From: Escherichia phage FL08 | Length of the DNA stretch: 64,000 nucleotides | Direction: 5' to 3' (one strand) | Sequence record: PP400785 | Part shown: in pieces, positions 10,042 to 49,629 of the stretch | Position numbering within the stretch: the stretch's first letter is position 1 | Layout: the number at the start of each line of letters is the position of its first letter | Position numbers and translations under genes: made by a program | Notes under the pieces: generated by a model | What the model was told of the DNA's origin: nothing | What the model saw: only the letters and a program-made list of their open reading frames with translations | Database searches by the model: none

Positions 10042-10071
10042 ATAAATTCTCGCGGCTTTTAAGACGAGCTG

Positions 10072-10590
10072 TTAATAACCTCGGTCTTGACGAGCGAAAT
10101 TTTCAGCATTTTTCAGATAATAAAGTTTAAAGATTTCTTCTGCTGTAAGACCAAGACCTTGAAACATGTTCAGAACAAAATGGAGAATATCAATCATTTC
10201 GAATTTGATTTCTAACTGGTCCTGTGGAGACAAATCAGTAATCAGAGTTTCACGACGTTCACCATGCTGAGCTTTCCACGGCTTCCATACAGCAGATGCA
10301 TCTTTTTCGCCATTGCTCATACCACCAAGAGAAGTCAGAAGTTCGCGGAATTCATCATCAATATAATCTTTCTGATTACGCAGCCAATCAACAACTTCAC
10401 CTGCAGTAGCCAAATCATCAGGATGACGGTTATATTCAGGTTTATCTTTAGCTAAACGAACTTGCAGAGATTTCTGCATATCAAGCATTACCTGCAGCGG
10501 GTCTTTTTCATCACCGAGAATATCCCAATATTCATTTTGAGCTTTATCAGCGCCTTCGATCAGTTGACTACATTCGTTGAAATGTGGCAT
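10072..10590 (-). CDS. 56: dCTPase / dCTP pyrophosphatase (gp56, MazG-like)
   Basis: 172 aa; position between soc and 61; all-alpha MazG-like composition; T4 gp56 about 171 aa. Confidence 0.8.
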   Translation of the reverse strand: MPHFNECSQLIEGADKAQNEYWDILGDEKDPLQVMLDMQKSLQVRLAKDKPEYNRHPDDLATAGEVVDWLRNQKDYIDDEFRELLTSLGGMSNGEKDASAVWKPWKAQHGERRETLITDLSPQDQLEIKFEMIDILHFVLNMFQGLGLTAEEIFKLYYLKNAENFARQDRGY

Positions 10591-10591
10591 G

Positions 10592-11242
10592 TTATTTTTC
10601 CTTTCTTATGAAGTTTTCTATCATATGTCTATAGCAGATATTAGGATAACCTGCCTTGACAGCTATTTTATTAAATTTTGTGCGCTTAGGTCTATTATTA
10701 TAAACCCATAATTCATAAAGCGCATCATAACTATTCCATATTTCTCCTCGCCTAGGATTTGGTAAACCATATCGAGGTGAATTTTTACCGCTAAATCTTC
10801 CTTTTCGGGCTTTACTCATATTAGCCTTGGCTTCATCGGATATAATTTTACCTTTATGAGCTAGACGCATTTTGGCTTTAGTTTCTTCTGGGGTCTTTTT
10901 GCCTTTAATCCATGACGGCTTGCCATATCTAGGATTATTTTCACCCGAGAAAAGAACAGAGTTTTGGATTTTAAGGGTTTCTATTAATCTACTTGTTAAT
11001 TTAACACCTTTATTATATCGCATTAAATTTACAGCATAATGCAATCCTCTCACATCTGGATATATTTTAGTTAATAATCTATGAGCTATAAAATGCTCAC
11101 GCGCAGTTAACTCAACAAGATTGTTTTTGTCATCTGCTCCTCCTATACATCTAGGAATTATATGATGGCGTTCTTTATATCCGCCAAGATGCCGGCATTT
11201 AGCTTTTGTAATTAAAGCCGAGTAAATTTTTTGGTAATTCAC
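10592..11242 (-). CDS. HNH homing endonuclease (Mob-like)
   Basis: N-terminal HHIIPRCIGG...NLV.LT..EH..AH HNH motif; C-terminal NUMOD-like repeats (NPRYGK, SPRYGL). Confidence 0.8.
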   Translation of the reverse strand: MNYQKIYSALITKAKCRHLGGYKERHHIIPRCIGGADDKNNLVELTAREHFIAHRLLTKIYPDVRGLHYAVNLMRYNKGVKLTSRLIETLKIQNSVLFSGENNPRYGKPSWIKGKKTPEETKAKMRLAHKGKIISDEAKANMSKARKGRFSGKNSPRYGLPNPRRGEIWNSYDALYELWVYNNRPKRTKFNKIAVKAGYPNICYRHMIENFIRKEK

Positions 11243-26092: not shown

Positions 26093-26809
26093 ATGAATTA
26101 TAAACTAATTTATGAAAAGTTAATCTCTAATGCTAAATCTCGAAAACTTGATTGCTATACTGAATCTCATCACATTATACCACGCTGTTTAAATGGCAGC
26201 GATGATGCTTCAAACTTAGTAGATTTAACACCAGAAGAGCACTATGTAGCTCATCAACTTTTAGTAAAAATTTATCCTTCTGAACCAAAATTAGTCTATG
26301 CTGCTAACATGATGACAGTTTCCACGAAATACGCTAAACGCAACAATAAAACTTTCGGTTGGATTCGTCGTAAACTCTGGGAAATAGAAAAGAATAAAGA
26401 ATTCTCCCAAGAGACACGAAAGAAAATGTCTGATGCAGTAGCTAATAAAGCAAGACTAACTTGTCCTCATTGCGGTAAGTCTGGATTAAGCGGGAATATG
26501 AATCGATGGCATTTTGATAACTGCCCGAATCACCCTAATCCTAAAGTTAGACCACCGATGTCTAAAGAACACAGAAATAATATCTCAAACGGGCTTAAAG
26601 CAATCATTCTTGAAGAAACATCCTGCGAATTCTGCGGAATGATAGGCAAGAAATGCGTTATCGCAGCGCATAGAAATTTCTGCAAGAAAAATCCAAATGG
26701 ACGCAAGAAAACTGAAAAGACTGGTACTTGCGTCCATTGTGGTAAAGTTACCACTTTCGGAAATTTATCAAGGTGGCATAATGATAACTGTAAATATAAA
26801 CCTAGCTAA
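26093..26809 (+). CDS. HNH homing endonuclease (Mob-like) with C-terminal Cys-rich zinc-finger repeats
   Basis: Plus strand; N-terminal ESHHIIPRCLNGSDD...NLV.LT.EEH..AH HNH motif shared with the two minus-strand HNH genes; CPHCG / CEFCG / CVHCG repeats. Confidence 0.8.
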   Translation: MNYKLIYEKLISNAKSRKLDCYTESHHIIPRCLNGSDDASNLVDLTPEEHYVAHQLLVKIYPSEPKLVYAANMMTVSTKYAKRNNKTFGWIRRKLWEIEKNKEFSQETRKKMSDAVANKARLTCPHCGKSGLSGNMNRWHFDNCPNHPNPKVRPPMSKEHRNNISNGLKAIILEETSCEFCGMIGKKCVIAAHRNFCKKNPNGRKKTEKTGTCVHCGKVTTFGNLSRWHNDNCKYKPS

Positions 26810-28937: not shown

Positions 28938-29953
28938 TGTGTTGCCTCTACATATAACTGATTTGCATATTGAATAAGTGCTTCACGGTCAGAATCAGTG
29001 ATGTCTGGAATTGCATTAATGTATTCTTCCATCAACGTCTGAAGCGATTGAACTTCAACTTCTTCACTATCATCTGACCCGACAGAGTTATCAATCTTTG
29101 ACACAACTCGTAATGAATGCACAACTTTTTCTAGTTCAGATTCGAACTTCGTCAGATTTTTGTCTACTTCAGTTACTATAACACGTACTGATAGATTTGT
29201 AAAATCTTTATAGTCAATTTTTCCTTTAAATGGATAATGAATTCTACGATGCCAGGTAGTGTTGTTTGGAATAAATTCCATTCGTTCTGTTTCTGTATCA
29301 AACATCCAGAACCCACGAGGGTCATTCTCGTCACCTGCAGTTAGTGTCCATGGTGTCCCAATATACTTGACGTTTGCAGCCTCAGAAATAGTATGGAAGT
29401 GACCAGACCACACTTCTTTATAAGTCTTAAGGAAATCAGGTTCAAGACCATGAGATTTCATTCCTTTATAAAAATAAAATCCGTTCAGTTCCCAGTGACC
29501 AACACAAAAAGAAGCAGATGAAGTTTTGATATGCTCAAGAATTTCACCAGTATTTTCTTCACACATCCAAGGAATTAAATCAATCAAACATCCATCAAAA
29601 TCTACTGTAGTAGGCTTATCATACACTTTAACATTAGGATATTTAGCCAAAAGCTCAGTAGAGGCATTTGGATGCATTACATTTTTGTAGTGGAGATCGT
29701 GATTTCCTACAATAGTATGTAATGTGATTCCAGCGTCATCAAGCATTTGAACTATTTCACGGGCAAACTCCATAGTTTTATGCGTGATTGCTTTTCGCAC
29801 ATCAAAAATATCACCATATTGAATCCATACAGTAATTCCATTTTTCTTAGAATATTCTATCGCTTGCTTAATTCCATCAATTTGAATACCGCGAATCCAC
29901 TCATCATCAGCTTTAACGCCTAAATGCCAATCACCCAAGTTTAGTATTTTCAT
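28934..29953 (-). CDS. 47: recombination endonuclease subunit gp47 (Mre11/SbcD-like)
   Basis: 339 aa (T4 gp47 size); calcineurin-like phosphoesterase motifs GDWHLG, GDIFD, GNHD. Confidence 0.9.
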   Translation of the reverse strand: MKILNLGDWHLGVKADDEWIRGIQIDGIKQAIEYSKKNGITVWIQYGDIFDVRKAITHKTMEFAREIVQMLDDAGITLHTIVGNHDLHYKNVMHPNASTELLAKYPNVKVYDKPTTVDFDGCLIDLIPWMCEENTGEILEHIKTSSASFCVGHWELNGFYFYKGMKSHGLEPDFLKTYKEVWSGHFHTISEAANVKYIGTPWTLTAGDENDPRGFWMFDTETERMEFIPNNTTWHRRIHYPFKGKIDYKDFTNLSVRVIVTEVDKNLTKFESELEKVVHSLRVVSKIDNSVGSDDSEEVEVQSLQTLMEEYINAIPDITDSDREALIQYANQLYVEATQ

Positions 29954-30554
29954 GGTGTCTTTTCCATCCTAATTTAGCTGCTTTTGAAACCAGTTCTTTA
30001 ATTTTTCCTTTTGTCCATTCAGGACCAGGAGGTTCATGACATAACATTTGCTTAACTCCGTTATTATACCATTTTTTACCTTTATTATGTGATGAAGCTT
30101 TAAATTTATTTGACCTTCCTTTTACATAACCTTCTGGAATATAAGGCAAAAAGGCAGATTTTCCTGTTAATGGATCATGTGAATGTATATTTCCTTTACA
30201 ATTATGAGAACCATATAATGGATGATTTTGTCCTTTATTATCTCTTCCAAACGAACCTTTTGGAGCAGCATATGACATATTAAAGAATAATGGATTTTTA
30301 ACTGCATCATGCAATCGTTGATAATATAACTCGCATTTAATAGCTTCTTCACGCGTATCAAATTCAGCTAAAATGCATGAATCAAATAAGTGAGGATTAT
30401 CTGAAAGCTCTTTATTATAAATTTTCTTATACTTTTTAGATAAAACTGAACCATGATATCCAGCTAAATGCCTATCTAAAGACGTAGATCCAATATAAAA
30501 AGGAGGAAGTTTATCTCCACTATATATTGTTAAATAAGTTATATATTTTTTCAT
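29931..30554 (-). CDS. GIY-YIG homing endonuclease (Seg-like)
   Basis: N-terminal YITYLTIY...FYIGST GIY-YIG motif; C-terminal NUMOD-like GxxHPLYG repeats; inserted between 47 and a-gt. Confidence 0.65.
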   Translation of the reverse strand: MKKYITYLTIYSGDKLPPFYIGSTSLDRHLAGYHGSVLSKKYKKIYNKELSDNPHLFDSCILAEFDTREEAIKCELYYQRLHDAVKNPLFFNMSYAAPKGSFGRDNKGQNHPLYGSHNCKGNIHSHDPLTGKSAFLPYIPEGYVKGRSNKFKASSHNKGKKWYNNGVKQMLCHEPPGPEWTKGKIKELVSKAAKLGWKRHHENTKLG

Positions 30555-36442: not shown

Positions 36443-38256
36443 TGGTGCTTAACCCTATGCATGATTTCTTTATTTTTACCGAGATTAAATCCGCGTTCGT
36501 TCGGATTTCCCAAATAACCACATGTTCTTCTTATTGTATTCATCTTTTTAGGATCAGTTTCTCCACAAATAGAACAAACAAATCCGTTTTCGGTAGGAGT
36601 CATTTCATGGGTACTTCCACATGTAAAACATTTATCTACTGGCATATTAACACCAAAATAATCTAAATGTTGCGCAGCATAATCCCATACAGCCTCAAGA
36701 CCCTTTAGGTTATTTTTCATATCAGGAAGTTCAACATAAGAAATGTGACCACCTGTCGCAATGAAATGATATGGCGCTTCACGAGAAATCTTTTCAAACG
36801 GAGTAATATTTTCTTCTACTGAAACATGGAAACTATTAGTGTACCAGCCTTTATCGGTAACATCTTTTACACTTCCATATTTTTCTGTATCAAGTTTACA
36901 GAAGCGGTAACAAAGGTTTTCAGCAGGAGTCGAATATAAACTAAAAGCAAATCCGGTTCTTTCAGTCCACTGTTTAAGATGAGCATTCATTTTAGTTAAA
37001 ATTTCTTGTCCAATATCACGACCGACAAGAATATTCAATTCGTGAATACCAATGTATCCTAAAGACACTGAACTTCTACCGTTTTTAAATAACTCAATTA
37101 TATCGTCATCGGGTTTAAGACGAACCCCGAATGCACCTTCTTGGTAAAGAATAGGAGCAACAGTAGCTTTAACTCCTTTTAAGGAACTAATTCTACACAT
37201 CAAAGCTTCAAAACACAAATCCATTCGCTCATTGAATAATTCAGTAAATTTCTGTTCATTGAATTGTGTTCCAATATAAGAATCTAACGCAATACGAGGA
37301 AGATTCAGTGTTACAACACCAAGATTATTACGTCCATCAAGAATTTCATTACCAGTCGAATCTTTCCATACGCTCAAGAAACTACGGCAACCCATTGGAG
37401 AAATAGGAACAGATGAACCAGTGATAGCTTTATTGTTCTTAGCTGAAATAATATCAGGATACATCCTTTTGCTTGCACACTCTAAAGCAAGCTGCTTAAT
37501 ATCATAGTTCGGATCGTCTTTATAAAGATTAACACCTTCTTCAACGAACATAACAAGTTTAGGGAAAATAGGAGTTATCCCGTCACGACCAAGACCTTTA
37601 ATACGATTTTTCAGAATTGCTTTCTGAATCATTCGTTCAGTCCAGTCAGTTCCCGTACCAAATGTAATTGTTACAAAAGGCGTTTGTCCGTTTGAACTAA
37701 AGAGAGTATTTACTTCATATTCATAAGCTTGGAATGCATCGTATACGTCTTTTTCTGTTTTAGATTGAGCATAATTCAACGCATCAGCGATTTGCCATTT
37801 TTCTGCATCCTCAATATGTTTTGCATAGGTGCGTTTAACATAAGGAGAAAGTACTTTATCTACATTCGCAAAAGTTGTTCCGCCATATTGATGGGAAGCA
37901 ACTTGCGCAGTAATTTGTGCCATAATTGCAGTAGCAACACCGATTGATTTAGGAGTTTCAATCTGTGCATTACCGAGCTTAAATCCGTTCTCAAGCATTC
38001 CTTTTAAATCTACTAAACAGCAATTAGTAAAAGGCAATGATATACTGTAATCTAAATCGTGAAAATGAATTAATCCGACATTATGAGCATTTACAATATG
38101 GCTCGGAAGAATACTACAAGCGATATGTTTAGAAACAATACCGGCCATTAAATCTCTTTTTGTTGGAAAGACACGAGAATCTTTGTTGGCATTTTCGGTA
38201 TTTAATTCTTTATCTTTATTTGAAATAAAATTTAAAACATCTTTCTCTAAAGACAT
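36439..38256 (-). CDS. nrdD: anaerobic ribonucleotide reductase NrdD (glycyl radical enzyme), uninterrupted
   Basis: 605 aa continuous ORF; C-terminal glycyl radical motif RRTCGYLG; C-terminal Cys4 zinc ribbon. Confidence 0.9.
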   Translation of the reverse strand: MSLEKDVLNFISNKDKELNTENANKDSRVFPTKRDLMAGIVSKHIACSILPSHIVNAHNVGLIHFHDLDYSISLPFTNCCLVDLKGMLENGFKLGNAQIETPKSIGVATAIMAQITAQVASHQYGGTTFANVDKVLSPYVKRTYAKHIEDAEKWQIADALNYAQSKTEKDVYDAFQAYEYEVNTLFSSNGQTPFVTITFGTGTDWTERMIQKAILKNRIKGLGRDGITPIFPKLVMFVEEGVNLYKDDPNYDIKQLALECASKRMYPDIISAKNNKAITGSSVPISPMGCRSFLSVWKDSTGNEILDGRNNLGVVTLNLPRIALDSYIGTQFNEQKFTELFNERMDLCFEALMCRISSLKGVKATVAPILYQEGAFGVRLKPDDDIIELFKNGRSSVSLGYIGIHELNILVGRDIGQEILTKMNAHLKQWTERTGFAFSLYSTPAENLCYRFCKLDTEKYGSVKDVTDKGWYTNSFHVSVEENITPFEKISREAPYHFIATGGHISYVELPDMKNNLKGLEAVWDYAAQHLDYFGVNMPVDKCFTCGSTHEMTPTENGFVCSICGETDPKKMNTIRRTCGYLGNPNERGFNLGKNKEIMHRVKHQ

Positions 38257-39068
38257 AATTCTAATTTATCCTTTTGAAATTCTTCGTCTAAATATGGGTT
38301 CCAACCCATTTTAAACCTTTTGATGAAATTATCAATTCTAAATTTCGGTAAATTTAACTCCGCAAAAATAGATGATTTACTTTTAAAATCTGGACCTAAA
38401 TAATCATATAAAATTTCTGCGTATTTTAACCATAATATATAAGTACCAGATTTAATTGCTCTAGGAGTTTTCCAAGGTTTTACGCCGTACATCGGATTTC
38501 CACTTCCTTTATGCCTGATAGAAGATGAAATTCCAATTTTAATTTTAGCTTCCTTTGTGTGCGAAAATCCATGATGTGGATTTTCTTTCCAGTATTTTTT
38601 AGAAGCTTCTGATATTTTCTTTCTGGCTAAATTAGTATGATGCTTTCCATAAAATCCATGATTTTTACCTTTATTACGATTTCTTTTAATCATGGTTATT
38701 GATTGCTTTTCTCTAGTTTCTTTAGAAGGAGAAACACCGTACGTTGTAAATTGACCATTAGCATATGCTAAATTAAAATACTCTTTATTCCATATATCTT
38801 TTTCTATATTCTTTTGAAATTCAGCTTCAATGCTAGTTATTTGTTCATCTCCGACTAATTGAAAATATAATATTTCAACTTTCGGTGTTTCTTTCAACAG
38901 AGCTTTTTGAAATTCGGAAGATGACGAAGACGAATAATAAAATTTACCATTTTTATCAATAATATTCGTTCCGTCAAAAGTGCAATTGGTTTTACTTCCA
39001 ATATAATAATATGGCGGGGTTTTAGCATTAATTCTACTAATAAATGATAGTTTATATACTACATTCAT
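38247..39068 (-). CDS. GIY-YIG homing endonuclease (Seg-like), free-standing upstream of nrdD
   Basis: N-terminal VYKLSFISRINAKTPPYYYIGSKTN GIY-YIG motif; NUMOD-like repeats (NHGFYGKHHT, GSGNPMYG). Confidence 0.65.
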   Translation of the reverse strand: MNVVYKLSFISRINAKTPPYYYIGSKTNCTFDGTNIIDKNGKFYYSSSSSSEFQKALLKETPKVEILYFQLVGDEQITSIEAEFQKNIEKDIWNKEYFNLAYANGQFTTYGVSPSKETREKQSITMIKRNRNKGKNHGFYGKHHTNLARKKISEASKKYWKENPHHGFSHTKEAKIKIGISSSIRHKGSGNPMYGVKPWKTPRAIKSGTYILWLKYAEILYDYLGPDFKSKSSIFAELNLPKFRIDNFIKRFKMGWNPYLDEEFQKDKLELCL

Positions 39069-40729: not shown

Positions 40730-40908
40730 TTAGAAATAGACTTTTCACCATTAGAATAATAAACTTCGAGTTTAGCGCGGCCATTTTTAATTTGAATAAC
40801 CTTGGCTGTCATCAAAGTTCCATACCCATAGTAAACTGCAACTTCATCACCTACATATACCGCGCTTCCGCGGTAATCATGGATATAATCAGTTCCTTCG
40901 AGCATCAT
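40693..40908 (-). CDS. hypothetical protein (71 aa)
   Basis: small ORF downstream of nrdC. Confidence 0.4.
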   Translation of the reverse strand: MMLEGTDYIHDYRGSAVYVGDEVAVYYGYGTLMTAKVIQIKNGRAKLEVYYSNGEKSISKWKYGDCMVKLG

Positions 40909-41168
40909 TTAAAGTATTCCCGCAATTGGTCAAATCCACCAATATGACTTCCATCAGGAGCAAATACCTGAGGCATTGTCAAGCCGATTTGAGTATCACG
41001 ACCTAGTTTAGTCAGAAGCTCAGCGATTTTCTCATCATCAAAAACACCTTTTTCCGGCATAATGTTGATAAATTCAAACGGCTGTTTCTTCACGGTCAAA
41101 AGACGTTTTGCATTATCGCAATACACACATTTATGGATGTTGCTATCATAACCATATACTTTAAACAT
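40905..41168 (-). CDS. nrdC: thioredoxin/glutaredoxin NrdC
   Basis: 87 aa (T4 NrdC size); CVYC redox motif. Confidence 0.8.
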   Translation of the reverse strand: MFKVYGYDSNIHKCVYCDNAKRLLTVKKQPFEFINIMPEKGVFDDEKIAELLTKLGRDTQIGLTMPQVFAPDGSHIGGFDQLREYFK

Positions 41169-41169
41169 A

Positions 41170-41412
41170 TTATTCCTTAATTCCTAGTACTTGTTTAAAA
41201 GTCTCGTCGTAATCAAGACTTTGGCCCGTTTGTTCTTTATGTTTGTATATAATATCACTTACTTCTGATAGCATATTTTTATATGAACGAGTTAAAGCAG
41301 ATTTAAGCACGCTGTATCTATCAGGAAATTTACCATGTTCATTATAATAAGCTATTGCTAATTCACGGACTGCCTTTTCAGCAGTCTCCATATATTCTTT
41401 ACGCTTGGTCAT
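41170..41412 (-). CDS. hypothetical protein (about 73-80 aa)
   Basis: ORF trimmed to avoid zinc-ribbon gene upstream; alternative start at 41391. Confidence 0.35.
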
Positions 41413-41713
41413 TTTCTTCTCGGTCAAATCGGTGTTTACAATGACGACATTTATAACGAAGATTACTAGTCTGCCAATGGACCAATTGCACCTGTTCAGT
41501 TCCACATTCAGGGCAATTAGGAACGTTTTTAGAAGCACGTTCGCGGCGTTCAACCATGACCATTACAGAATCCCAATTAATAGGGCTGCTATAATCATCA
41601 CAACCATAAATCTTTCCACGCATTTCCAAATCGTCTTCTTCACCAGCCATAATAATTTTAATTAGACTAGAATTACTTGAAGCTGCAATGTCTTCTAATA
41701 GACGCTTTTTCAT
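41399..41713 (-). CDS. zinc-ribbon protein (104 aa)
   Basis: CPECG ... CRHCKH Cys4 zinc-ribbon arrangement. Confidence 0.45.
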
Positions 41714-42666
41714 TTCAATACCTCAATAGCATTACGTAAACCATTTGCTTTTGCATTAAGAGCTTTTAACAATTTGGTGTGTTCTGCAATTTGGGCTTCA
41801 ACTTCAATCAAACGAGCATTGAGATATTCACGTTCTTCGCTCAAGTTATCAACTTTTTCTACTTTAGGTTCTTTTACAACTGGCTTATACGTATTAGGGT
41901 TCTTCAGTTTAATTAGAATGCGTGAACTGTATAACATTGAACCATTATCTTCGGTTTCATCATACATTTCTACTACGTCCATGATTTTTAACATCATGCG
42001 AAGTTTATAAGACAACGAACGAATAGTTTTGTTGTGCTTATTAATTTCTTTAGCTGTCATGGTGCCGAGATTACGTGAGTAATAATAAGGAACCTGGATA
42101 TTAATTAATACTGATGAACCACCTGGCTTGTGTGTTACTTCATCAGCAATAACCCAGTCCTTAACATGAACTGTATTTGTACGGTCATCGCCTGCGGTAA
42201 ATAGTTTACGAGCATGCTTAAAAAGCATATTCACTTGGTCATTGAATTGACAAGCGAATTTATCAGCAAATTTAGTTTCAGGAATGGTAGATAACCAATC
42301 AGCCAAATGGGTCTTTTTAACATCGTTAACAATAGTAAATTCAACCAAATCGGTTATAGATGTCGCAGATTTAATGAAGCTCGGCTTCATAAAGTTTTTA
42401 ATGTTCTCATGAGCTACAGTAGAAGATAACATACGAGAACGTTTAAACCATTCAAGCAAATTGCCTAACGAATGAGAATAAGCGTTTTGAGTATCTTTAC
42501 AGATATGATTTTCCTGGCCAACATATTGAAGGAAATCACGAAGAATATTATTAATTACTGCTCTGTGTCCGATCTGATAATTGCGGTGTTTAGTAATAAG
42601 ACTGTCAAAATAATCAATATAATGTTTACGAGTCATATTAATCTCCTCAGTAGAAAGTAAGAACAT
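41710..42666 (-). CDS. hypothetical protein with C-terminal coiled coil (318 aa)
   Basis: Large ORF; last ~45 aa heptad-rich ([44 protein letters not shown]). Confidence 0.5.
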   Translation of the reverse strand: MFLLSTEEINMTRKHYIDYFDSLITKHRNYQIGHRAVINNILRDFLQYVGQENHICKDTQNAYSHSLGNLLEWFKRSRMLSSTVAHENIKNFMKPSFIKSATSITDLVEFTIVNDVKKTHLADWLSTIPETKFADKFACQFNDQVNMLFKHARKLFTAGDDRTNTVHVKDWVIADEVTHKPGGSSVLINIQVPYYYSRNLGTMTAKEINKHNKTIRSLSYKLRMMLKIMDVVEMYDETEDNGSMLYSSRILIKLKNPNTYKPVVKEPKVEKVDNLSEEREYLNARLIEVEAQIAEHTKLLKALNAKANGLRNAIEVLK

Positions 42667-42693
42667 TATACCACATCCTTGTGGCGAAGTAAA

Positions 42694-43713
42694 CTAGTTT
42701 AGTGCATTTAGTGCATTGTTCAGTTTAGAACGTTGCTTCGTGAGATTTTTGACTTTTTCTTGAGCTTTTTCTAGCATCTTTTCAGCTTCTAACACTTCAT
42801 TAGTTGCTTTAACGAGTTCATCATCTACTGCCTTAAGGGACTTCTCAATCGCATCCGCGTGCCATTTTTCAACAGGTTTAAGACTCGGATTTTCAACAGG
42901 AAGAAAATTCGCTTTATTGAATTTCCATGCATCCTTATTACCTGAACTATACATCCAATATTTAGGATCGTTTGATGAGTAATTGGATAAATTTAAGATA
43001 TCTTGCACTTCCTGCTTTTTCTCTTGCGGGATTTCGTCCTTTCTCAAAAAATCGTATTTAAATGAAACGATCATATCAAGTTCATATGTTGTTGTGTCTA
43101 ATTTAAATCGCTCAAAACGAGGTAAAATCTTAGACTGAACAGCGGCAACAACATCCATATACTTAAATGCTTCTGCCAACTGCGATTTAAGGCATTCGCA
43201 AATTGAAAGAGAATTTTTTGTATTAGGTTTAAAGCTAATTCGTGCAGTTCTATTATTTTCTTTAAATGGTCTTACTTCCATCTGAAGAGTATAACCATCA
43301 AATTTCAGATTCTTTAAGTTAATATCAGAGCCCTTTAATCGACTAGCAGTAGACAAAATTTGCTTTAATTGTTTACGAAATAGAGCAATAAATCTCCATT
43401 CAATACGATAATGATTTGGATTAAAAAATCCTGTTGATAAATCAACCTTACTCTGACCAACGCCTTGAACAAATAGAGGATTTTTATAATCAATAGTTTT
43501 ACAGAAATCGGTGAGCTGCTCACGAGCAGTCATTTGTGTAATATATCCCGCTTTACTAAAATGACGTAACCATTCACTGCTATTCATATACTTAAAGTGA
43601 ATGGAACTATTAACTCTATCAGGGTCTAAATTATTTTGGCACAAAAATGTCATAACATTACGGGTATAGCTGGCATTACGAACCATATCTTCAATTTGAG
43701 AACGAGTTTTCAT
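42694..43713 (-). CDS. hypothetical protein with C-terminal coiled coil (339 aa)
   Basis: Large ORF; coiled-coil tail (DELVKATNEVLEAEKMLEKAQEKVKNLTKQRSKLNNALNALN). Confidence 0.5.
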   Translation of the reverse strand: MKTRSQIEDMVRNASYTRNVMTFLCQNNLDPDRVNSSIHFKYMNSSEWLRHFSKAGYITQMTAREQLTDFCKTIDYKNPLFVQGVGQSKVDLSTGFFNPNHYRIEWRFIALFRKQLKQILSTASRLKGSDINLKNLKFDGYTLQMEVRPFKENNRTARISFKPNTKNSLSICECLKSQLAEAFKYMDVVAAVQSKILPRFERFKLDTTTYELDMIVSFKYDFLRKDEIPQEKKQEVQDILNLSNYSSNDPKYWMYSSGNKDAWKFNKANFLPVENPSLKPVEKWHADAIEKSLKAVDDELVKATNEVLEAEKMLEKAQEKVKNLTKQRSKLNNALNALN

Positions 43714-43721
43714 AGTGTTCC

Positions 43722-44627
43722 TTAAGATTTAAGTAAATCAACAATTTTAATTAATTTTTCACGCTCAGATTTAGCTTTACTACTCAATCCAGATAATCTG
43801 AAAATTTCATCGTCATATTGTTGAATAGAAATATTCAGCTCTTCAATTTGCTTATTAAAATAATCAATTTGTTCAGAATGTTTTTCGTTACTACGAACTG
43901 GTACAAGTTTTGTAGGCAATTTAGTTGAACTGGATTCATCCGGGCGATAAATTAAAATACAACTTGAACCAATAGGGCATTTAGCACCAGATGAATATTC
44001 TAATGTTCCGGCTTCTTTTAAAACTTCAAAAGCTAAACAGAGATGATGCCCCATATTAACATAATCTGTAGAGTGAGCTCTGATATAATAATCATCGCCG
44101 CGAATACTAAATTTAAAGCATTTAAGGTCTTCTGTATTATTGGTCTTAAAAATCATTTGTTTATCTAGACCTTTAGCTAATCGAGCGCCTAATGCTAATA
44201 ATCGTCGTTGATTTTCCCACAAATCCGCAATCATTTGATCGAATGATAATTTCGGCATTAGTCGACCATAAAGGTCATATCCTTTATTATAATTGCGAAG
44301 GATTTCACTCGCATTAATACGAGACAACGCTCCAATTTTATTAAGGGCTTTCATGATGCGATCAGATAAACTCATTCCAGACCCGTTTGTTCGCTGTAAA
44401 TGTTTTTCTAATCCAAATCCAATATCAACTTTAAATTTATCTAAAATTTCAGCATGAACATCTCTGTCAATAACACTCAAATCCAAAGTTGTGTTAAATC
44501 TATGAAAAAACTTATCTGGCTCTCCACGACGAAATACAGTCCATTCATTCATCATTTTTTTATTAACTAAAGATTTAATTACTGCATTGACATTATTAAT
44601 TACTACTGACATATTTTTCTCACTCAA
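43722..44627 (-). CDS. hypothetical protein with C-terminal coiled coil (301 aa)
   Basis: Large ORF; coiled-coil tail (IDYFNKQIEELNISIQQYDDEIFRL). Confidence 0.5.
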   Translation of the reverse strand: MSEKNMSVVINNVNAVIKSLVNKKMMNEWTVFRRGEPDKFFHRFNTTLDLSVIDRDVHAEILDKFKVDIGFGLEKHLQRTNGSGMSLSDRIMKALNKIGALSRINASEILRNYNKGYDLYGRLMPKLSFDQMIADLWENQRRLLALGARLAKGLDKQMIFKTNNTEDLKCFKFSIRGDDYYIRAHSTDYVNMGHHLCLAFEVLKEAGTLEYSSGAKCPIGSSCILIYRPDESSSTKLPTKLVPVRSNEKHSEQIDYFNKQIEELNISIQQYDDEIFRLSGLSSKAKSEREKLIKIVDLLKS

Positions 44628-45028
44628 TTTTCAATTTTACTAAATACACAGAATATGATGGAAAAGACTATATAAGCACCGCATACAGATTGAACTAATA
44701 CCATTCCAAAGAACCAAACAATATTATCAAACAATGTCTGTTTTACGTCGAAAGGACGTAAACTTACAGTAATATTATCACCTTTTTCTATTGACGAATA
44801 CATCTCTGGTGAAATATATTCACTAAATCTATAACCGTCTTTGAGTTCATATACGGCAATAAACGATAAACTAGACCCCTTTCCTTGAGTTCCTGTAAAG
44901 GTATTAACTACAGTAACATCATAATCTTTATAATGCATATAATCATTAATTGCGTAATAACCATATGCAATTACTATACATAAACAACATATCAATAAAT
45001 TCAATCTTTTAATTATCAACTGTTTCAT
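44624..45028 (-). CDS. membrane protein (134 aa, TM at both ends)
   Basis: N- and C-terminal hydrophobic helices. Confidence 0.45.
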   Translation of the reverse strand: MKQLIIKRLNLLICCLCIVIAYGYYAINDYMHYKDYDVTVVNTFTGTQGKGSSLSFIAVYELKDGYRFSEYISPEMYSSIEKGDNITVSLRPFDVKQTLFDNIVWFFGMVLVQSVCGAYIVFSIIFCVFSKIEN

Positions 45029-45083
45029 AATAATCTCAATTAAAAGGGCTTAGAACCATTATACCATCCTTGGTATAAAGCGG

Positions 45084-45611
45084 TTATGCGAGTACCGTCT
45101 TTAACCGTTCTTCAAACTTCCGAAGAGTATTCTGGCGTTCAGCTCTTTGCTTTTTGTAAGTTTCAATACGCTCTGAAATGAGAGTGTATCGTTCATTTAC
45201 TGATTCTTTCATAAAATCAGGAATTTCACGAGAAGCTTTAATCTCATCAAATTTATCAATAACAGCTTGCTCTTCAGCAATTAAGTTATCATACATCAAA
45301 ATATCTTTCTTGATGAACTCAATATCTTCTTGAGTTACACGAGATAATTTAGATGCTTTATCCTTTTTGTACTGTTCGTTAGTATCACGAGACCAGTGTA
45401 ATGTACGATTTTTATTCGTATTTTTGTAAATTTCTACAATACCAATCTCATCGATAATAACGATCCAATTCCAACGAGATTTGTAAATTTGTCCTCCATC
45501 AACCGTGATTTCACCTCCAATTGAGATGTCATTAAAGAACTTGCTTTGAGCTTCAGATTTAAATTTACCATCATTGTAGTTTACCAAGTTGAAAATATCT
45601 TTAGCATTCAT
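45084..45611 (-). CDS. hypothetical protein with C-terminal coiled coil (176 aa)
   Basis: Start trimmed to ATG after GGAGG; track start lies inside promoter. Confidence 0.45.
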   Translation of the reverse strand: MNAKDIFNLVNYNDGKFKSEAQSKFFNDISIGGEITVDGGQIYKSRWNWIVIIDEIGIVEIYKNTNKNRTLHWSRDTNEQYKKDKASKLSRVTQEDIEFIKKDILMYDNLIAEEQAVIDKFDEIKASREIPDFMKESVNERYTLISERIETYKKQRAERQNTLRKFEERLKTVLA

Positions 45612-45617
45612 TTTCTG

Positions 45618-45675
45618 TTCCTCCGTAGTTGATAGTTGTATAGTACCACAGAGGAACGGTCTTGTAAACAACTAA
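45618..45675 (-). promoter_or_regulatory. early promoter cassette
   Basis: tagttgatagttgtatagtaccac ... cttgtaaaca core shared with other cassettes. Confidence 0.5.
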
Positions 45676-45986
45676 AAGAAACTTCTTTCACAATTTTTTC
45701 CACTGAACCACGCGCTCACTGCTTTCTTAGTCTCAGGAGCAGTGTTATCCATAAACCATTCAAAGGCAGCCTTTTTATGATTCTGGAGGGCTTCTCGGGC
45801 TTTAATCTGCTCACGGTCTATTAACACTAACATATGAGCCTTTCTTGTCACCATGGGCTTCTTATGATTTTTTGAATACTCCCAGTCATTTGTCCATCGC
45901 ATTGTCGTTGCGAATTGAAATACAGCTTCTTTAATTTTAGTTTCGTAAATTTCACGAGCCTTTGAGTATAACATCATTACCTCCAT
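45672..45986 (-). CDS. hypothetical protein (104 aa)
   Basis: ORF in operon. Confidence 0.4.
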   Translation of the reverse strand: MEVMMLYSKAREIYETKIKEAVFQFATTMRWTNDWEYSKNHKKPMVTRKAHMLVLIDREQIKAREALQNHKKAAFEWFMDNTAPETKKAVSAWFSGKNCERSFF

Positions 45987-46057
45987 TTACCAGTTTAATT
46001 CTAGTCATCTTTTTGATGGCAGTCCATATAATCTATTTCTGAACTGCCTTTTTTGTC

Positions 46058-46777
46058 TTAGGATTCTTCTAAATGTCTTTTCTGAAAAGTTGATACCATA
46101 CTACGATACGGTTCATTTGGATATCCGTGTTTTATAGCTTCCTTTGTAAATTTTCTCCATCCATATTTAGTTTCTTTCCAAAGCTCGAATAATTCATCTT
46201 CATACTGCCATATAGTTAAATGAGAACGCTTTGCAGCTTTAATTCCATTAATATGCTTTTCTTTTACTGCAGGATTGCTTAGTTTCTTTTTAATAATATT
46301 ACTAACTTTTCTAACAAAAACTGGGTCCTTATATCGTTGCGAAGTTTTTATTGAAGTGTTTAATTTAGCTTCCGGCGTGGATGTAACCTCTTTCATCTTT
46401 TTCTTCATATGCTGTATATGATTAGGATTTTTCCATAAATTTATAGAATGCTTTTTGCATTTTATCCTAGTTTCATCTGCAACCTTTCCTCCTTCACCCC
46501 CGTATGACAGGTTAACACAGTTTTTTCCATATTTCAATTTACCTGCCATGATATATAATATTTCAGCTTGTACCATTTTATCATAATTATCAAAAACTTC
46601 TAAAACCGTTTTTGATAATATGTGGTCATTTGACACTTTTACACGTTCTATATAATTTCCACTACCAACATACGAATCATTGATGTTATTAGTTATATGT
46701 CGACCATAATAGTATTTCTTAATACCTGTCTTTAAATTTAATATTTCAGTTTTATAGATAGTAAAATATTTTTTCAT
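46058..46777 (-). CDS. GIY-YIG homing endonuclease (Seg-like)
   Basis: N-terminal IYKTEILNLKTGIKKYYYGRH GIY-YIG motif; basic C-terminal DNA-binding region. Confidence 0.65.
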   Translation of the reverse strand: MKKYFTIYKTEILNLKTGIKKYYYGRHITNNINDSYVGSGNYIERVKVSNDHILSKTVLEVFDNYDKMVQAEILYIMAGKLKYGKNCVNLSYGGEGGKVADETRIKCKKHSINLWKNPNHIQHMKKKMKEVTSTPEAKLNTSIKTSQRYKDPVFVRKVSNIIKKKLSNPAVKEKHINGIKAAKRSHLTIWQYEDELFELWKETKYGWRKFTKEAIKHGYPNEPYRSMVSTFQKRHLEES

Positions 46778-47742
46778 TTTAATAATACCGTTTCAGCAAT
46801 TTCTTCCCAACCGTTTTTGTCGGTCATAATAAAGTCAGCAAGATAAAGAGCAGTACGCAGTGAAACATTGCGTAAACGATTAACATTAACTTTCATCCAT
46901 GATAATGCTTTATAAGTTTCTTCATCAGAAAGACCGCGCTTTTGCATCATGTCAGTTGAAAGAATAACATCTTCAACCCTGACCATAATTTCTTCATTAG
47001 TGTGAACACCCAAATCCAAATAAACCGAGCGGGACACTAATGCTTGTAAATGTGGAGCAAGTTTAGTACCACGGTCTAATTCGCGGTCAATGTCAACGTT
47101 TGTGATAAAAACAATCGTTCCTTTAAATTCAAACTCACGCTCAATGCCTTTTTCTTCTAAGTAAGAAGATGCAGTGCTCCAGCAGACTTTACGGGTCTCT
47201 CCAGTGTCCAGAGCGGCTTTTAGAAGATTAAGAATGTCCATATCAGAGAAAACATCCACATCATCAATCAAAAGGACAGAATTCTCTTCACGATTATTCC
47301 AAAGCTGCTCATAAAGACCAATACCAGAGATTTTACCATTAATGCTTTTATATTCAATGTATCCAATATCATTTGCTTTATTTAAAGCTTTATCTAAAGA
47401 ATACGTTTTACCAATACCTGCTGCTCCCGAGATAATTAATGAACGAATGTTTCCGTTAATAATACCATTCGTCATCATTCCCATAACATTAAATCTTTTA
47501 TTAATGCGGGTTTTCATATCTTCATACGATTCTTTAACTTCTTCAACTTTTACACCATCATATGAAATGTCTGATTTGTAAACCCAAACACCGCGACGCT
47601 TACCGTCAATTTCAACAAAAACTTTACCATCTCCTTGTGCATCTACCGGAGCATTATCAGGAAACCACTCACCTAAGAGTTCAAAAGTTCCAGAGATTTC
47701 TTTACCAAAGTAGATACCCTTATTGATAGTTACAGTTTTCAT
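46774..47742 (-). CDS. P-loop NTPase (about 323 aa)
   Basis: Walker A GAAGIGKT; Walker B-like LLIDDVD; start trimmed to MKTVTI ATG after GGAG. Confidence 0.55.
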   Translation of the reverse strand: MKTVTINKGIYFGKEISGTFELLGEWFPDNAPVDAQGDGKVFVEIDGKRRGVWVYKSDISYDGVKVEEVKESYEDMKTRINKRFNVMGMMTNGIINGNIRSLIISGAAGIGKTYSLDKALNKANDIGYIEYKSINGKISGIGLYEQLWNNREENSVLLIDDVDVFSDMDILNLLKAALDTGETRKVCWSTASSYLEEKGIEREFEFKGTIVFITNVDIDRELDRGTKLAPHLQALVSRSVYLDLGVHTNEEIMVRVEDVILSTDMMQKRGLSDEETYKALSWMKVNVNRLRNVSLRTALYLADFIMTDKNGWEEIAETVLLK

Positions 47743-47769
47743 TTTATTCTCCAAATCCGTATCAGTTGA

Positions 47770-47830
47770 TAGTTGTATAGTACCATAAAGCTTTATGCTT
47801 GTAAACAGTTTTGTGAAAAATTTTTGAAAT
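47770..47830 (-). promoter_or_regulatory. early promoter cassette
   Basis: GTTTAC -35 and TACTATAC -10; leader and RBS identical over ~50 nt to cassette at 19584..19630. Confidence 0.6.
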
Positions 47831-47835
47831 AAAAA

Positions 47836-47853
47836 GGGAGCCCGAAGGCTCCC
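47836..47853 (-). terminator. UUCG-tetraloop terminator hairpin
   Basis: gggagcc-cgaa-ggctccc followed by U-run on minus transcript. Confidence 0.55.
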
Positions 47854-47855
47854 TA

Positions 47856-48866
47856 TCATTTATAATAACTTCGGTGGTTTTCAAGATAGACCTTCTCAAG
47901 GAAGTCATCCCAGAAACCCATGTCTACTTTTTGCTGCATACCATTCTTAGAAGCTTCAGTAGATGCTGCTTCTACTTGATCGACCACATCTTCCAAAAAC
48001 TCTTGAACTGTTTTAAATGGATGTTTACCCAACTTCACGTCGAGAATAAATGGAGCATCTTGAAGTGGATAGACTAAGTCACCAGTTTTGTAAATTTCCA
48101 ATAGTTGGAGTCCACCACGACAAGCATGACTCAGAGCTTTCCAGTCAATACCTTCGTTGGCTTCGGCCTTACGAGCGCGTTCACCGTATTCAGCATCTAA
48201 TTTGTTCAGTGACTGCTTAAGCTCAATAAGAGAAAGCGTTGTCTGATATTTACGACCCAACACAGTGTAAAACGTCTGTGGGCCTGTTTTCTCATGATTA
48301 TGAAACACCCATTCACAAAATTCGTTTTCTGGAAGACGATGCTTAATATCTTCAACTTTAGTGCGACGTTGCTTAATAGAACCATCTTCTTGGTAATCAA
48401 CCCATTGCTCAGGGATTTGATTAACTACTTTCAATACATCACGTAATGCAGCCAAACGAGAACCCTTGACACCGTATTTAGAAGCTTGCTTGCGGACATA
48501 TCCTAAATATGATTTCATGTTAGTCGTATAAAAACGAGAACGGTTGTCTTGAATAAACTTCCACACATCAGGCAAATCAGATTTAACCACTAGCTCAGGT
48601 GGAGTGTGAAGCATATCTAATGCTACAGTTTCACCATCTGCTGCTAATTTAAAGAAATATTTAAGACTGTATAGTTCATGGTCAATATCATCTTTAGTGT
48701 TTTTAGATGATGTGTTGTTAGTGTTTTTACTCATGTGCTCTTTGACATTTCCGATAAGAATATCGCGAGCAGGAGGAACAAAAATTTCTTTAAAATCTAC
48801 ATCAGATTCTGGGGTAGAAGTTCCATAAAGATGACTACCAAAATAAGACTTAACTACAGTTTTCAT
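47856..48866 (-). CDS. Pol-beta-superfamily nucleotidyltransferase-like protein
   Basis: N-terminal G-S-x10-D-x-D signature (GSHLYGTSTPESDVD); start taken at MKTVVK (track ORF extends to 48902). Confidence 0.5.
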   Translation of the reverse strand: MKTVVKSYFGSHLYGTSTPESDVDFKEIFVPPARDILIGNVKEHMSKNTNNTSSKNTKDDIDHELYSLKYFFKLAADGETVALDMLHTPPELVVKSDLPDVWKFIQDNRSRFYTTNMKSYLGYVRKQASKYGVKGSRLAALRDVLKVVNQIPEQWVDYQEDGSIKQRRTKVEDIKHRLPENEFCEWVFHNHEKTGPQTFYTVLGRKYQTTLSLIELKQSLNKLDAEYGERARKAEANEGIDWKALSHACRGGLQLLEIYKTGDLVYPLQDAPFILDVKLGKHPFKTVQEFLEDVVDQVEAASTEASKNGMQQKVDMGFWDDFLEKVYLENHRSYYK

Positions 48867-49629
48867 TATTAGACCTTTCATAATCTTCATTAAATTGTAC
48901 AATCAATCGATGATAATTAGATTTTGGATATCCTAATTTACTTATATAAGTTCCGAATGACCCACGTTTAGGTCTATTTAATTTAATCCATAACTTATAA
49001 AGTAAGTCATAGTCTTGCCAATGTTTACCAGTTCTTTGTCTAATTTTAGATGAATTTGATTGTTTCTTTTTAGTTTCAAAATTATTCAAAGATTTTTTGA
49101 CTGCAGCAGAGTGTTTTTCTTTAACTCCCGGTCGTTTAAAAGCAGCTTTCACCCCTTTAGATATTTTTTCTTTAACTTCCGGTTTGTTTTGTGCTTCTAA
49201 CTGGGATTCTGAAATTTTAGCCCTTATTTCAGGAAGACTTAATGTTATCGAACGTTTTTCTCTGTATTCATTAGACTTCCACATTTCTTTCATTGTATTA
49301 GAATGTATTTTTGAAAATTTTTCTCTAACTAACTGATATCCTCTTGAAGTTAATTTGAGATTTCTTCCTAAAGAATCTTCTCCAAAATTATAAAATGACC
49401 ACCATGCATAAATTAATCCAGGCGAATTATAATGAATTTTAGCTAAAAGCCAATGGGCTATAAAATGCTCTCTAGCTGTTAATAAAACTAGATTATCAGA
49501 ATCATCATTACCACCAATACAAGATGGAATAATATGATGCTTTTCCGTATAAAAATTTAATTTAGATTTATCTAATTTTCTGAGTTTTCCTTTCTTAATT
49601 AAATTATTATATACTTTAGTATAATTCAT
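48850..49629 (-). CDS. HNH homing endonuclease (Mob-like; mobD position)
   Basis: N-terminal EKHHIIPSCIGGNDD...NLV.LTAREHFIAH HNH motif; Lys-rich C-terminal repeats. Confidence 0.8.
   Translation of the reverse strand: MNYTKVYNNLIKKGKLRKLDKSKLNFYTEKHHIIPSCIGGNDDSDNLVLLTAREHFIAHWLLAKIHYNSPGLIYAWWSFYNFGEDSLGRNLKLTSRGYQLVREKFSKIHSNTMKEMWKSNEYREKRSITLSLPEIRAKISESQLEAQNKPEVKEKISKGVKAAFKRPGVKEKHSAAVKKSLNNFETKKKQSNSSKIRQRTGKHWQDYDLLYKLWIKLNRPKRGSFGTYISKLGYPKSNYHRLIVQFNEDYERSNNENCS

Follow-up and report, generated by a model that had tools for sequence, protein, structure and literature searches.

What connects a row of phage proteins that all end in the same kind of helix? The question is raised by a stretch of the genome of Escherichia phage FL08 (sequence record PP400785; 64,000 nucleotides, called the window from here on), in which four open reading frames (ORFs) between positions 41710 and 45611, all on the minus strand, encode proteins with heptad-rich C-terminal ends. 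An initial annotation read them as unrelated N-terminal domains, or heads, carrying a similar oligomerisation tail. The analysis indicates instead that three of the four, the orthologs of NrdC.3, NrdC.5 and NrdC.6 of phage T4, belong together with T4 NrdC.4 to one superfamily in which the heads are homologous, and that the fourth, NrdC.8, stands apart. We consider it fairly likely that nrdC.3, nrdC.4, nrdC.5 and nrdC.6 are tandem paralogs of one head-linker-helix family and that they are early proteins that counter host defence at different targets.

The whole window is a Tequatrovirus (T4-like) genome, whose segment from 41300 to 46100 shares about 96% identity with RB3, T4_ev151 and many further records. 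Comparison with T4 nrdC.1 to nrdC.11, as the initial annotation had proposed, shows that the T4 gene order from nrdC to nrdC.11 is kept, with every gene of the segment on the minus strand, and local BLASTP gives the four ORFs the T4 names nrdC.3, nrdC.5, nrdC.6 and nrdC.8. The nrdC.3 ortholog (41710-42636, 308 amino acids (aa)) is 98% identical to RB3 NrdC.3 and 61% identical to T4 NrdC.3; it was placed by the PHROGs family phrog_1435 (E 9e-117), into which T4 NrdC.4 also falls (E 6e-168), and its homologs are tagged PF26897. The nrdC.5 ortholog (42694-43713, 339 aa; phrog_2351) is 92% identical to T4 NrdC.5 and matches the Pfam family DUF7235 (PF23882, E 3e-121) over its full length, with 405 bits against a gathering cut-off of 30 and profile positions 1-307 of 307. 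The nrdC.6 ortholog (43722-44612, 296 aa; phrog_2257, E 2e-150) is 96% identical to RB3 NrdC.6, and its 105 homologs are all tagged PF26899. The nrdC.8 ortholog (45084-45611, 175 aa) is 99% identical to T4 NrdC.8 and matches phrog_2274 (E 7e-111, positions 1-175 of 175). DUF7235 on NrdC.5 is the only Pfam match above threshold among the four proteins. Pfam does not show the proposed superfamily link, and PHROGs unites NrdC.3 and NrdC.4 only.

Word-indexed protein searches gave almost only close orthologs, and the comparison of heads was made on 54 loci from diverse T4-like phages, with a database of 1142 ORFs. As anchor for retrieving loci, NrdC.8 gave 15 closely related loci and gp49 gave 33, the better set. 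By BLASTP, NrdC.3 is 24% identical to T4 NrdC.4 across ~270 residues. In iterative hidden Markov model (HMM) searches with heads only, the last 60 residues being removed, the model grew from NrdC.3 to NrdC.4 and on to single-copy proteins of other genera. That model matches the heads of NrdC.5 (residues ~50-194, E 8e-6 to 8e-5) and of the 338-aa NrdC.6-type proteins of other genera (S5, assigned to this type by full-length phmmer; E 3e-6 to 2e-5), in both cases prior to their inclusion. Comparison of head profiles with hhalign gives a strong link between NrdC.3 and NrdC.4 (probability 99%, P 3e-18) and a good one between NrdC.4 and NrdC.5 (66%, P 6e-5), with lower values for NrdC.3 and NrdC.5 (7%, P 0.005) and for NrdC.5 and NrdC.6 (10%, P 0.003). 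The single-copy type of Klebsiella phages (S1) acts as a hub, joining NrdC.3 (87%, P 4e-6), NrdC.4 (95%, P 2e-8) and NrdC.6 (82%, P 1e-5). All 40 head controls, which were reversed profiles and the heads of NrdC.10 and NrdC.11, scored at most 17.5 with P of at least 0.12. A first round of hhalign with shallow full-length family profiles had given probabilities of 0.6-29%, and is superseded by the richer head-only profiles with decoys. By eye, alignment A4 contains a conserved head block (HFSKAGYITQMTAREQLTDFCK, WFKRSRMLSSTVAHENIKNFMK and ALNKIGALSRINASEILRNYNK) and a second one (ASRLKG, ARKLFTAG and GARLAKG), and NrdC.3, NrdC.4 and NrdC.5 share the start M(K)TR.

Structure models agree with this. 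AlphaFold2 predicts for NrdC.5 a disordered linker at residues 224-281 followed by a helix at 283-338 with a predicted local distance difference test score (pLDDT) of ~70-84, the overall pLDDT being 63. For NrdC.6 (pLDDT 78, predicted template modelling score 0.66) a linker at residues 228-242 is followed by helices at 243-272 and 278-295. The initial annotation had suggested structure prediction of the N-terminal domains, and the outcome goes against unrelated heads, since both models have the same order of elements: N-terminal helices, a helix pair, a beta-hairpin, a helix, a beta-hairpin, the linker and the terminal helix. Secondary structure assigned by DSSP agrees in 62% of the aligned head columns of NrdC.5 and NrdC.6, compared with 39.5 +/- 5.8% in circularly shifted controls, none of 92 of which reach 62%. 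In Foldseek searches of BFVD both models share six uncharacterised targets of 309-346 aa at E <=1e-3, from T4-like phages of Enterobacter, Klebsiella, Serratia, Citrobacter, Yersinia and Pectobacterium; proteins of Acinetobacter, Aeromonas and Erwinia phages are likewise among the matches. It is because of the head-only profiles, the decoy-controlled hhalign comparisons, the bridging single-copy proteins, the order of secondary structure elements and the shared Foldseek targets, taken together, that the four proteins NrdC.3 to NrdC.6 are indicated to be one superfamily. The family is also narrow and phage-specific, confined to T4-like phages, since the superfamily profile finds just 22 proteins at E <=1e-3 among 1.84 billion representatives, all of them family-like or fragments. 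Among the papers found that name these genes we saw no treatment of their paralogy; the genes are known T4 ORFs, one of them with a published role, and the superfamily link is modestly new.

The heptad-rich C-terminal helices of the initial annotation hold up in all four proteins. The heptad score used here is ad hoc (hydrophobic residues at a and d, polar ones elsewhere, best of seven registers, in a 28-residue window) and was applied to the 65 minus-strand ORFs of at least 100 aa, with z-scores taken against whole-protein shuffles. On this score the four proteins occupy ranks 2-5 (z 3.5-4.7), the best heptad window of each lies within 1-22 residues of the C-terminus, and a heptad periodicity with a hydrophobic a/d seam of at least 28 residues is present in every one. 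The predicted amphipathic helix of NrdC.3 comprises its last 45 aa (41713-41847; best window residues 278-305, z 3.9). NrdC.5 has the highest score among the flagged proteins (z 4.7), and its modelled helix (residues 283-338, 42700-42867), ending in ...QRSKLNNALNALN, has weak Pfam matches to the coiled-coil families DUF4164 and CENP-F_leu_zip (E 0.01-0.03). In the monomer model the NrdC.6 tail (residues 243-272 and 278-295, 43728-43886), ending in ...EREKLIKIVDLLKS, is a helix-break-helix with the break at GLSSK. For NrdC.8 the heptad-rich stretch covers residues 126-175 (45087-45236; best window residues 145-172, z 3.7). In the whole window only the Rad50-like gp46 scores comparably; high-scoring ORFs elsewhere in the window, which are gp46- and gp47-type recombination proteins, were considered and are unrelated to the nrdC locus.

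Whether the tails are alike, as had been claimed, has a divided answer. Tail-only hhalign, with the last 50 residues and reversed-sequence controls, aligns NrdC.3 with NrdC.5 (74%, P 3e-5), NrdC.5 with S1 (96%, P 2e-9), S1 with S5 (95%, P 8e-8) and S5 with NrdC.6 (57%, P 1e-4), always in register. NrdC.6 is in this way linked to the others solely via intermediates from other genera, and the match of NrdC.4 is restricted to the last 10-12 residues. For NrdC.8 no comparison with another tail was better than the worst reversed control, and the tail HMMs of NrdC.4, NrdC.6 and NrdC.8 retrieve their own families only. A terminal motif, approximately [QENR]RxxLxxA[ILVM]xxL[KN]-COOH, was tested as the pattern [LMF]xx[AIVL][LIVMF]x[LIVA][LI][KNI] at most two residues from the C-terminus; 62 of the 77 family members carry it, against none of the 1062 ORFs outside the family. 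The motif is present in NrdC.3, NrdC.5 and NrdC.6 of the window, and in the form of roughly QRxKLxxAhxxLK it is family-specific.

How, then, is the common end to be explained? An exchangeable coiled-coil oligomerisation tail joined to unrelated heads, as in the initial annotation, would agree with the heptad-rich end of all four proteins, with a region that varies between phages, and with the stronger conservation of the tail among orthologs, in which tail and head identities are 70% and 40% for NrdC.6, 32-38% and 22-25% for NrdC.5, and 72% and 59% for NrdC.3. Among paralogs the picture is different: tails are 16-34% identical and heads 16-26%, and both are therefore about equally diverged. 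Since paralog tails are no closer to each other than paralog heads, whole-gene tandem duplication is indicated, not a shuffled or exchanged tail module. The model of an exchangeable tail is largely refuted by this and by the homology of the heads of the three large proteins, by the NrdC.8 tail, which is unrelated to the others, and by the lack of a tail on a foreign head among the 22 matches in 1.84 billion representatives, and we regard it as very improbable. What survives of the proposed modular effector family in a hypervariable region is the variable accessory region and a plausible effector role, T4 nrdC.5 being a gene that overcomes the defence protein Dsr1; the common tail on unrelated heads does not. 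Coiled-coil-like segments are readily alignable, and the failure of the NrdC.4, NrdC.6 and NrdC.8 tail HMMs to recover anything outside their own families could be taken to mean that unrelated hypothetical proteins each have a charged amphipathic end helix by chance of composition. Such an explanation is hardly credible for the set as a whole when head homology was obtained with the tails excluded, reversed controls of the same composition fail, the end motif is absent from 1062 other ORFs and paralogs share their first codons. It is refuted for NrdC.3, NrdC.5 and NrdC.6, and it is the best description of NrdC.8 in relation to the others. In terms of the superfamily, the tail is an old, constrained part of one ancestral protein and not a module moved among heads.

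NrdC.8 never joins the superfamily, neither in head and tail HMM searches nor in hhalign, where it remains at control level. It is a separate, strongly conserved small protein (the ratio of nonsynonymous to synonymous substitution rates, dN/dS, is 0.03), and its likeness to the others is that of a generic amphipathic terminal helix only. The gene co-occurs only with multi-copy arrays. Between nrdC.8 and nrdC.6 lies nrdC.7 (44624-45028, minus strand, 134 aa; 92% identical to T4 NrdC.7, phrog_2547), a predicted membrane protein according to the annotation of the T4 and RB3 records. The ad hoc score finds no heptad signal in NrdC.7, and it is not a superfamily member.

The arrangement of the array differs between genera. 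In Tequatrovirus the order is nrdC.8-.6-.5-.4-.3, in Mosigvirus nrdC.8-.6-.5-.3, and in Dhakavirus and Gaprivervirus nrdC.8-.6-.5-.4, while more distant genera have a single copy of 309-355 aa and no nrdC.8. Superfamily copy number is thus 1-4 across genera, and it is polymorphic inside Tequatrovirus. The array appears to have arisen by whole-gene tandem duplication, followed by divergence. In the window nrdC.4 is missing, and the DNA upstream of nrdC.3 is the promoter and Shine-Dalgarno region that belongs to nrdC.4 in T4 and RB3. The switch point relative to these two phages is an 8-bp match, ACTCGTAA (42626-42633, minus strand), which is common to codons 2-4 at the 5' ends of nrdC.4 and nrdC.3. 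This fits a loss of nrdC.4 by unequal recombination between paralog 5' ends at the 8-bp match. Of 500 matching phage records, 26 share this junction lacking nrdC.4, EC121, HY03 and KFS-EC3 among them.

Other rearrangements of these genes were seen in the sample. One protein (P0056) is a natural chimera in which NrdC.5 residues ~146-270 are joined to NrdC.3 residues ~144-308, a deletion that fused two paralogs. In one IMG/VR Tequatrovirus (L007/L022) nrdC.4 is split into ORFs of 193 aa and 158 aa. The T4 reference NrdC.6 (275 aa; 10067-10894 in the T4 locus, L001) diverges from residue ~260 and is without the conserved terminal helix, apparently because of a frameshift.

Across these genes dN/dS is 0.03-0.38, which means purifying selection. 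The low identity (61%) of NrdC.3 in the window to that of T4 (6934-7860 in L001) comes with a dS of 1.14, where flanking genes have a dS of ~0.1, and this indicates two old alleles in the genus that would have been exchanged by recombination and not fast evolution. Positive selection was considered as a cause of the low identity and is ruled out by the dS of 1.14 and a dN/dS of 0.27.

It should be mentioned that three of the four ORFs, nrdC.3, nrdC.6 and nrdC.8, were at the right place in the initial annotation with a length or start that needed correction. In the 318-aa ORF the first 10 codons are spurious. Its ATG at 42666 falls within a -10 box, and because of the positions of promoter and Shine-Dalgarno sequence (GAGGAG) the start of nrdC.3 is revised to the ATG at 42636, giving 308 aa. 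The 301-aa ORF includes five extra codons, beginning with a TTG, ahead of the annotated ATG at 44612; counted from that ATG, nrdC.6 has 296 aa. The ORF given as 176 aa has 175. Directly upstream of nrdC.3 lies an early-promoter-like site (GTTTAC, 17 nucleotides, TG-TATAAT; 42665-42694, minus strand), which precedes nrdC.4 in T4 and RB3, and which in this genome would drive nrdC.3. A second such site (GTTTAC, 17 nucleotides, TG-TACTAT; 45640-45669, minus strand) lies upstream of nrdC.8, whose Shine-Dalgarno sequence GGAG is at 45621-45624. In T4, the GGAG in the nrdC.8 intergenic region is moderately cut by the early-mRNA nuclease RegB (PMC1702504). Related promoter elements are found upstream of paralogs in JK36 and VR20. 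Over the window as a whole promoter-like sites are not above chance in number, and the argument uses only individual GTTTAC...TG-TATAAT sites immediately upstream of genes.

The spacer of the site upstream of nrdC.3 contains a small hairpin, CCACA-AGGA-TGTGG (42671-42685). In the form CCA-AGGA-TGG, between GTTTAC and TATAAT, a hairpin is also present in the spacers of several paralogs and of nrdC.7 (45062-45075), as well as in intergenic regions of loci L001, L003 and L004, and Tequatrovirus, Mosigvirus and Gaprivervirus all conserve it. One possibility is that the hairpin was copied when the genes were duplicated; another is that it serves as an RNA 3' end or processing element. The spacer motif CAAGGATG showed no window-wide enrichment (3 matches, 1.5 expected).

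What these proteins might do is best approached from T4. Srikant et al. (2022) found that a T4 deletion mutant regains its plating on dsr1 cells through T4 nrdC.5, described as an early gene not yet characterised (PMC9391042), and nrdC.1-6 is a removable, dispensable block in T4 (PMC9825161). The 339-aa ORF of the window is the ortholog of this anti-Dsr1 gene, with its high identity, full-length Pfam match and the same genome position, and the neighbouring large ORFs share its architecture as distant paralogs. On the reading preferred here, each paralog would consist of an alpha/beta head of ~220-280 aa (N-terminal helices, a conserved helix pair and a beta-hairpin/helix/beta-hairpin unit), a disordered linker of 15-60 aa, and a conserved C-terminal amphipathic helix with the family-specific end motif. 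The genes are non-essential, kept by purifying selection and preceded by early-type promoters, and their copy number shifts through recombination between paralogs. NrdC.5 of the window would neutralise the SIR2-type protein Dsr1 as T4 NrdC.5 does, and the other paralogs may be made early to inhibit host immune proteins other than Dsr1. Target specificity may lie in the diverged head, and the slower-evolving terminal helix may supply self-association or a common docking function.

Several points weigh against this. The evidence for activity is confined to T4 NrdC.5 and is genetic only, and the head matches no known fold or domain and no solved structure, so that a specific biochemical activity is unsupported. 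The coiled-coil support comes from the ad hoc heptad score, and self-association of the tails is inferred. NrdC.6 is the weakest link of the superfamily: its direct head comparisons are weak (P 0.22 with NrdC.3 and 0.13 with NrdC.4, neither significant, and 0.003 with NrdC.5) and its membership depends on intermediate sequences. The NrdC.5 model is moderate, and since its alignment held NrdC.3 and NrdC.6 sequences, its agreement with NrdC.6 is not fully independent. The same paralog family could also serve outside defence, for instance as scaffolds or early regulators in the phage's DNA or nucleotide metabolism or in its transcription, and NrdC.5 would then affect Dsr1 indirectly. The nucleotide-metabolism genes nrdC, nrdD and nrdG are neighbours, NrdC.3 has a very weak Pfam match to an integrase SAM-like DNA-binding domain (E 0.098), and the mechanism of NrdC.5 is unpublished, DSR1 still being termed poorly characterised in 2026 (PMC13464706). 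We nevertheless think such a role unlikely, given that the block is dispensable in laboratory hosts (PMC9825161), that copy number varies freely, that neither Pfam nor PDB sequence searches gave a metabolic or DNA-binding domain at significance, and that the sole recorded phenotype is specific to host range and defence (PMC9391042). The 'thioredoxin' labels that these genes have in GenBank come without a thioredoxin domain. Searches of PDB by sequence (with the NrdC.6 profile, NrdC.5 and the NrdC.8 profile) gave nothing meaningful, and PADLOC defence-system models gave no matches.

Below the family matches, the NrdC.5 model weakly resembles tail-completion, tail-terminator and head-tail connector proteins (Foldseek E 0.01-0.07), which probably reflects generic beta-alpha-beta similarity. 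The sirtuin DSR2, which is related to Dsr1, senses a tail tube protein. On the basis of these Foldseek matches, the beta-hairpin/helix/beta-hairpin core may mimic a virion tail-completion or terminator protein and act as a decoy for sensors like Dsr1. A further idea is that co-expressed paralogs associate via the end helix, with each other or with a shared partner, into one multi-specific anti-defence complex. This is quite improbable in our view; if true, changes in array copy number would retune which host immune sensors get blocked.

Known systems offer some parallels. T4 internal proteins IPI, IPII and IPIII have an N-terminal capsid-targeting peptide that is common to otherwise unrelated bodies, which is true modularity. 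They resemble the present case in having a hypervariable locus, dispensable anti-defence proteins and a short shared terminal element, and differ in that the nrdC paralogs are homologous as whole proteins and have a helix at the C-terminus in common. The ipIII gene is itself an anti-defence gene (PMC9391042). T4 NrdC.5 is itself a close case, with the differences that anti-Dsr1 activity was shown genetically for the T4 protein only, and that Pfam and PHROGs hold NrdC.5, NrdC.6 and NrdC.3/NrdC.4 as separate families. DSAD1, an inhibitor of the SIR2 protein DSR2 (PMC10973363, PMC11263360), is a functional analogue of NrdC.5 in the escape from a defence-associated sirtuin and is likened by function only; its target is DSR2 and not Dsr1, and a tandem paralog array or terminal coiled coil is not reported for it. 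Segmental amplification of tifA in T4 (PMC9391042) and amplification driven by SegB (PMC13096335) are cases in which viral counter-defence genes expand as families or are amplified. The likeness is that accessory-gene copy number is altered by recombination at short homologies, with homing endonuclease genes flanking the nrdC locus; the difference is that the amplifications are recent identical repeats, whereas the nrdC array is old, with paralog heads 16-26% identical and each gene under purifying selection.

If the preferred reading of an anti-defence paralog family is right, it bears on how Dsr1 is defeated, as NrdC.5 would be one of up to four paralogs of the same architecture. Through paralogy NrdC.3, NrdC.4 and NrdC.6 become candidates for the inhibition of other defence systems, as do their single-copy relatives in T4-like phages, those of Klebsiella, Serratia and Acinetobacter among them. 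The predicted domain plan, with a variable head, a linker and a conserved end helix, is a guide to truncations and chimeras, and natural copy-number variants such as this genome without nrdC.4 are ready host-range comparisons. A widespread mis-annotation is also corrected. Many GenBank records of T4-like phages call nrdC.1-nrdC.11 'thioredoxin', including all four proteins discussed here, none of which has a Pfam match to a thioredoxin or glutaredoxin domain. The genuine NrdC is an 87-aa ORF at 40905-41168, and the labels are its name carried over. One T6 record names nrdC.5 'tail sheath stabilizer', which is likewise unsupported by domain evidence.

Among the neighbours there are four homing-endonuclease-like ORFs, at 38247-39068, 46058-46777 and 29931-30554 (all minus strand) and at 26093-26809 (plus strand), the last being a rare plus-strand gene. 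Their labels are NUMOD3 with phrog_7504, phrog_314, GIY-YIG and phrog_655/HNH, and the nrdC accessory block lies between two of them. The nrdC.10/nrdC.11 pair follows at 46774-47859 and 47856-48902. The nrdC.10 ortholog has weak matches to AAA/STAND-like NTPases, all under the Pfam cut-off, and the nrdC.11 ortholog is a RlaP-type nucleotidyltransferase, from the family named 'RNA repair pathway'. Together these two neighbouring genes might form a further module for counter-defence or RNA repair.

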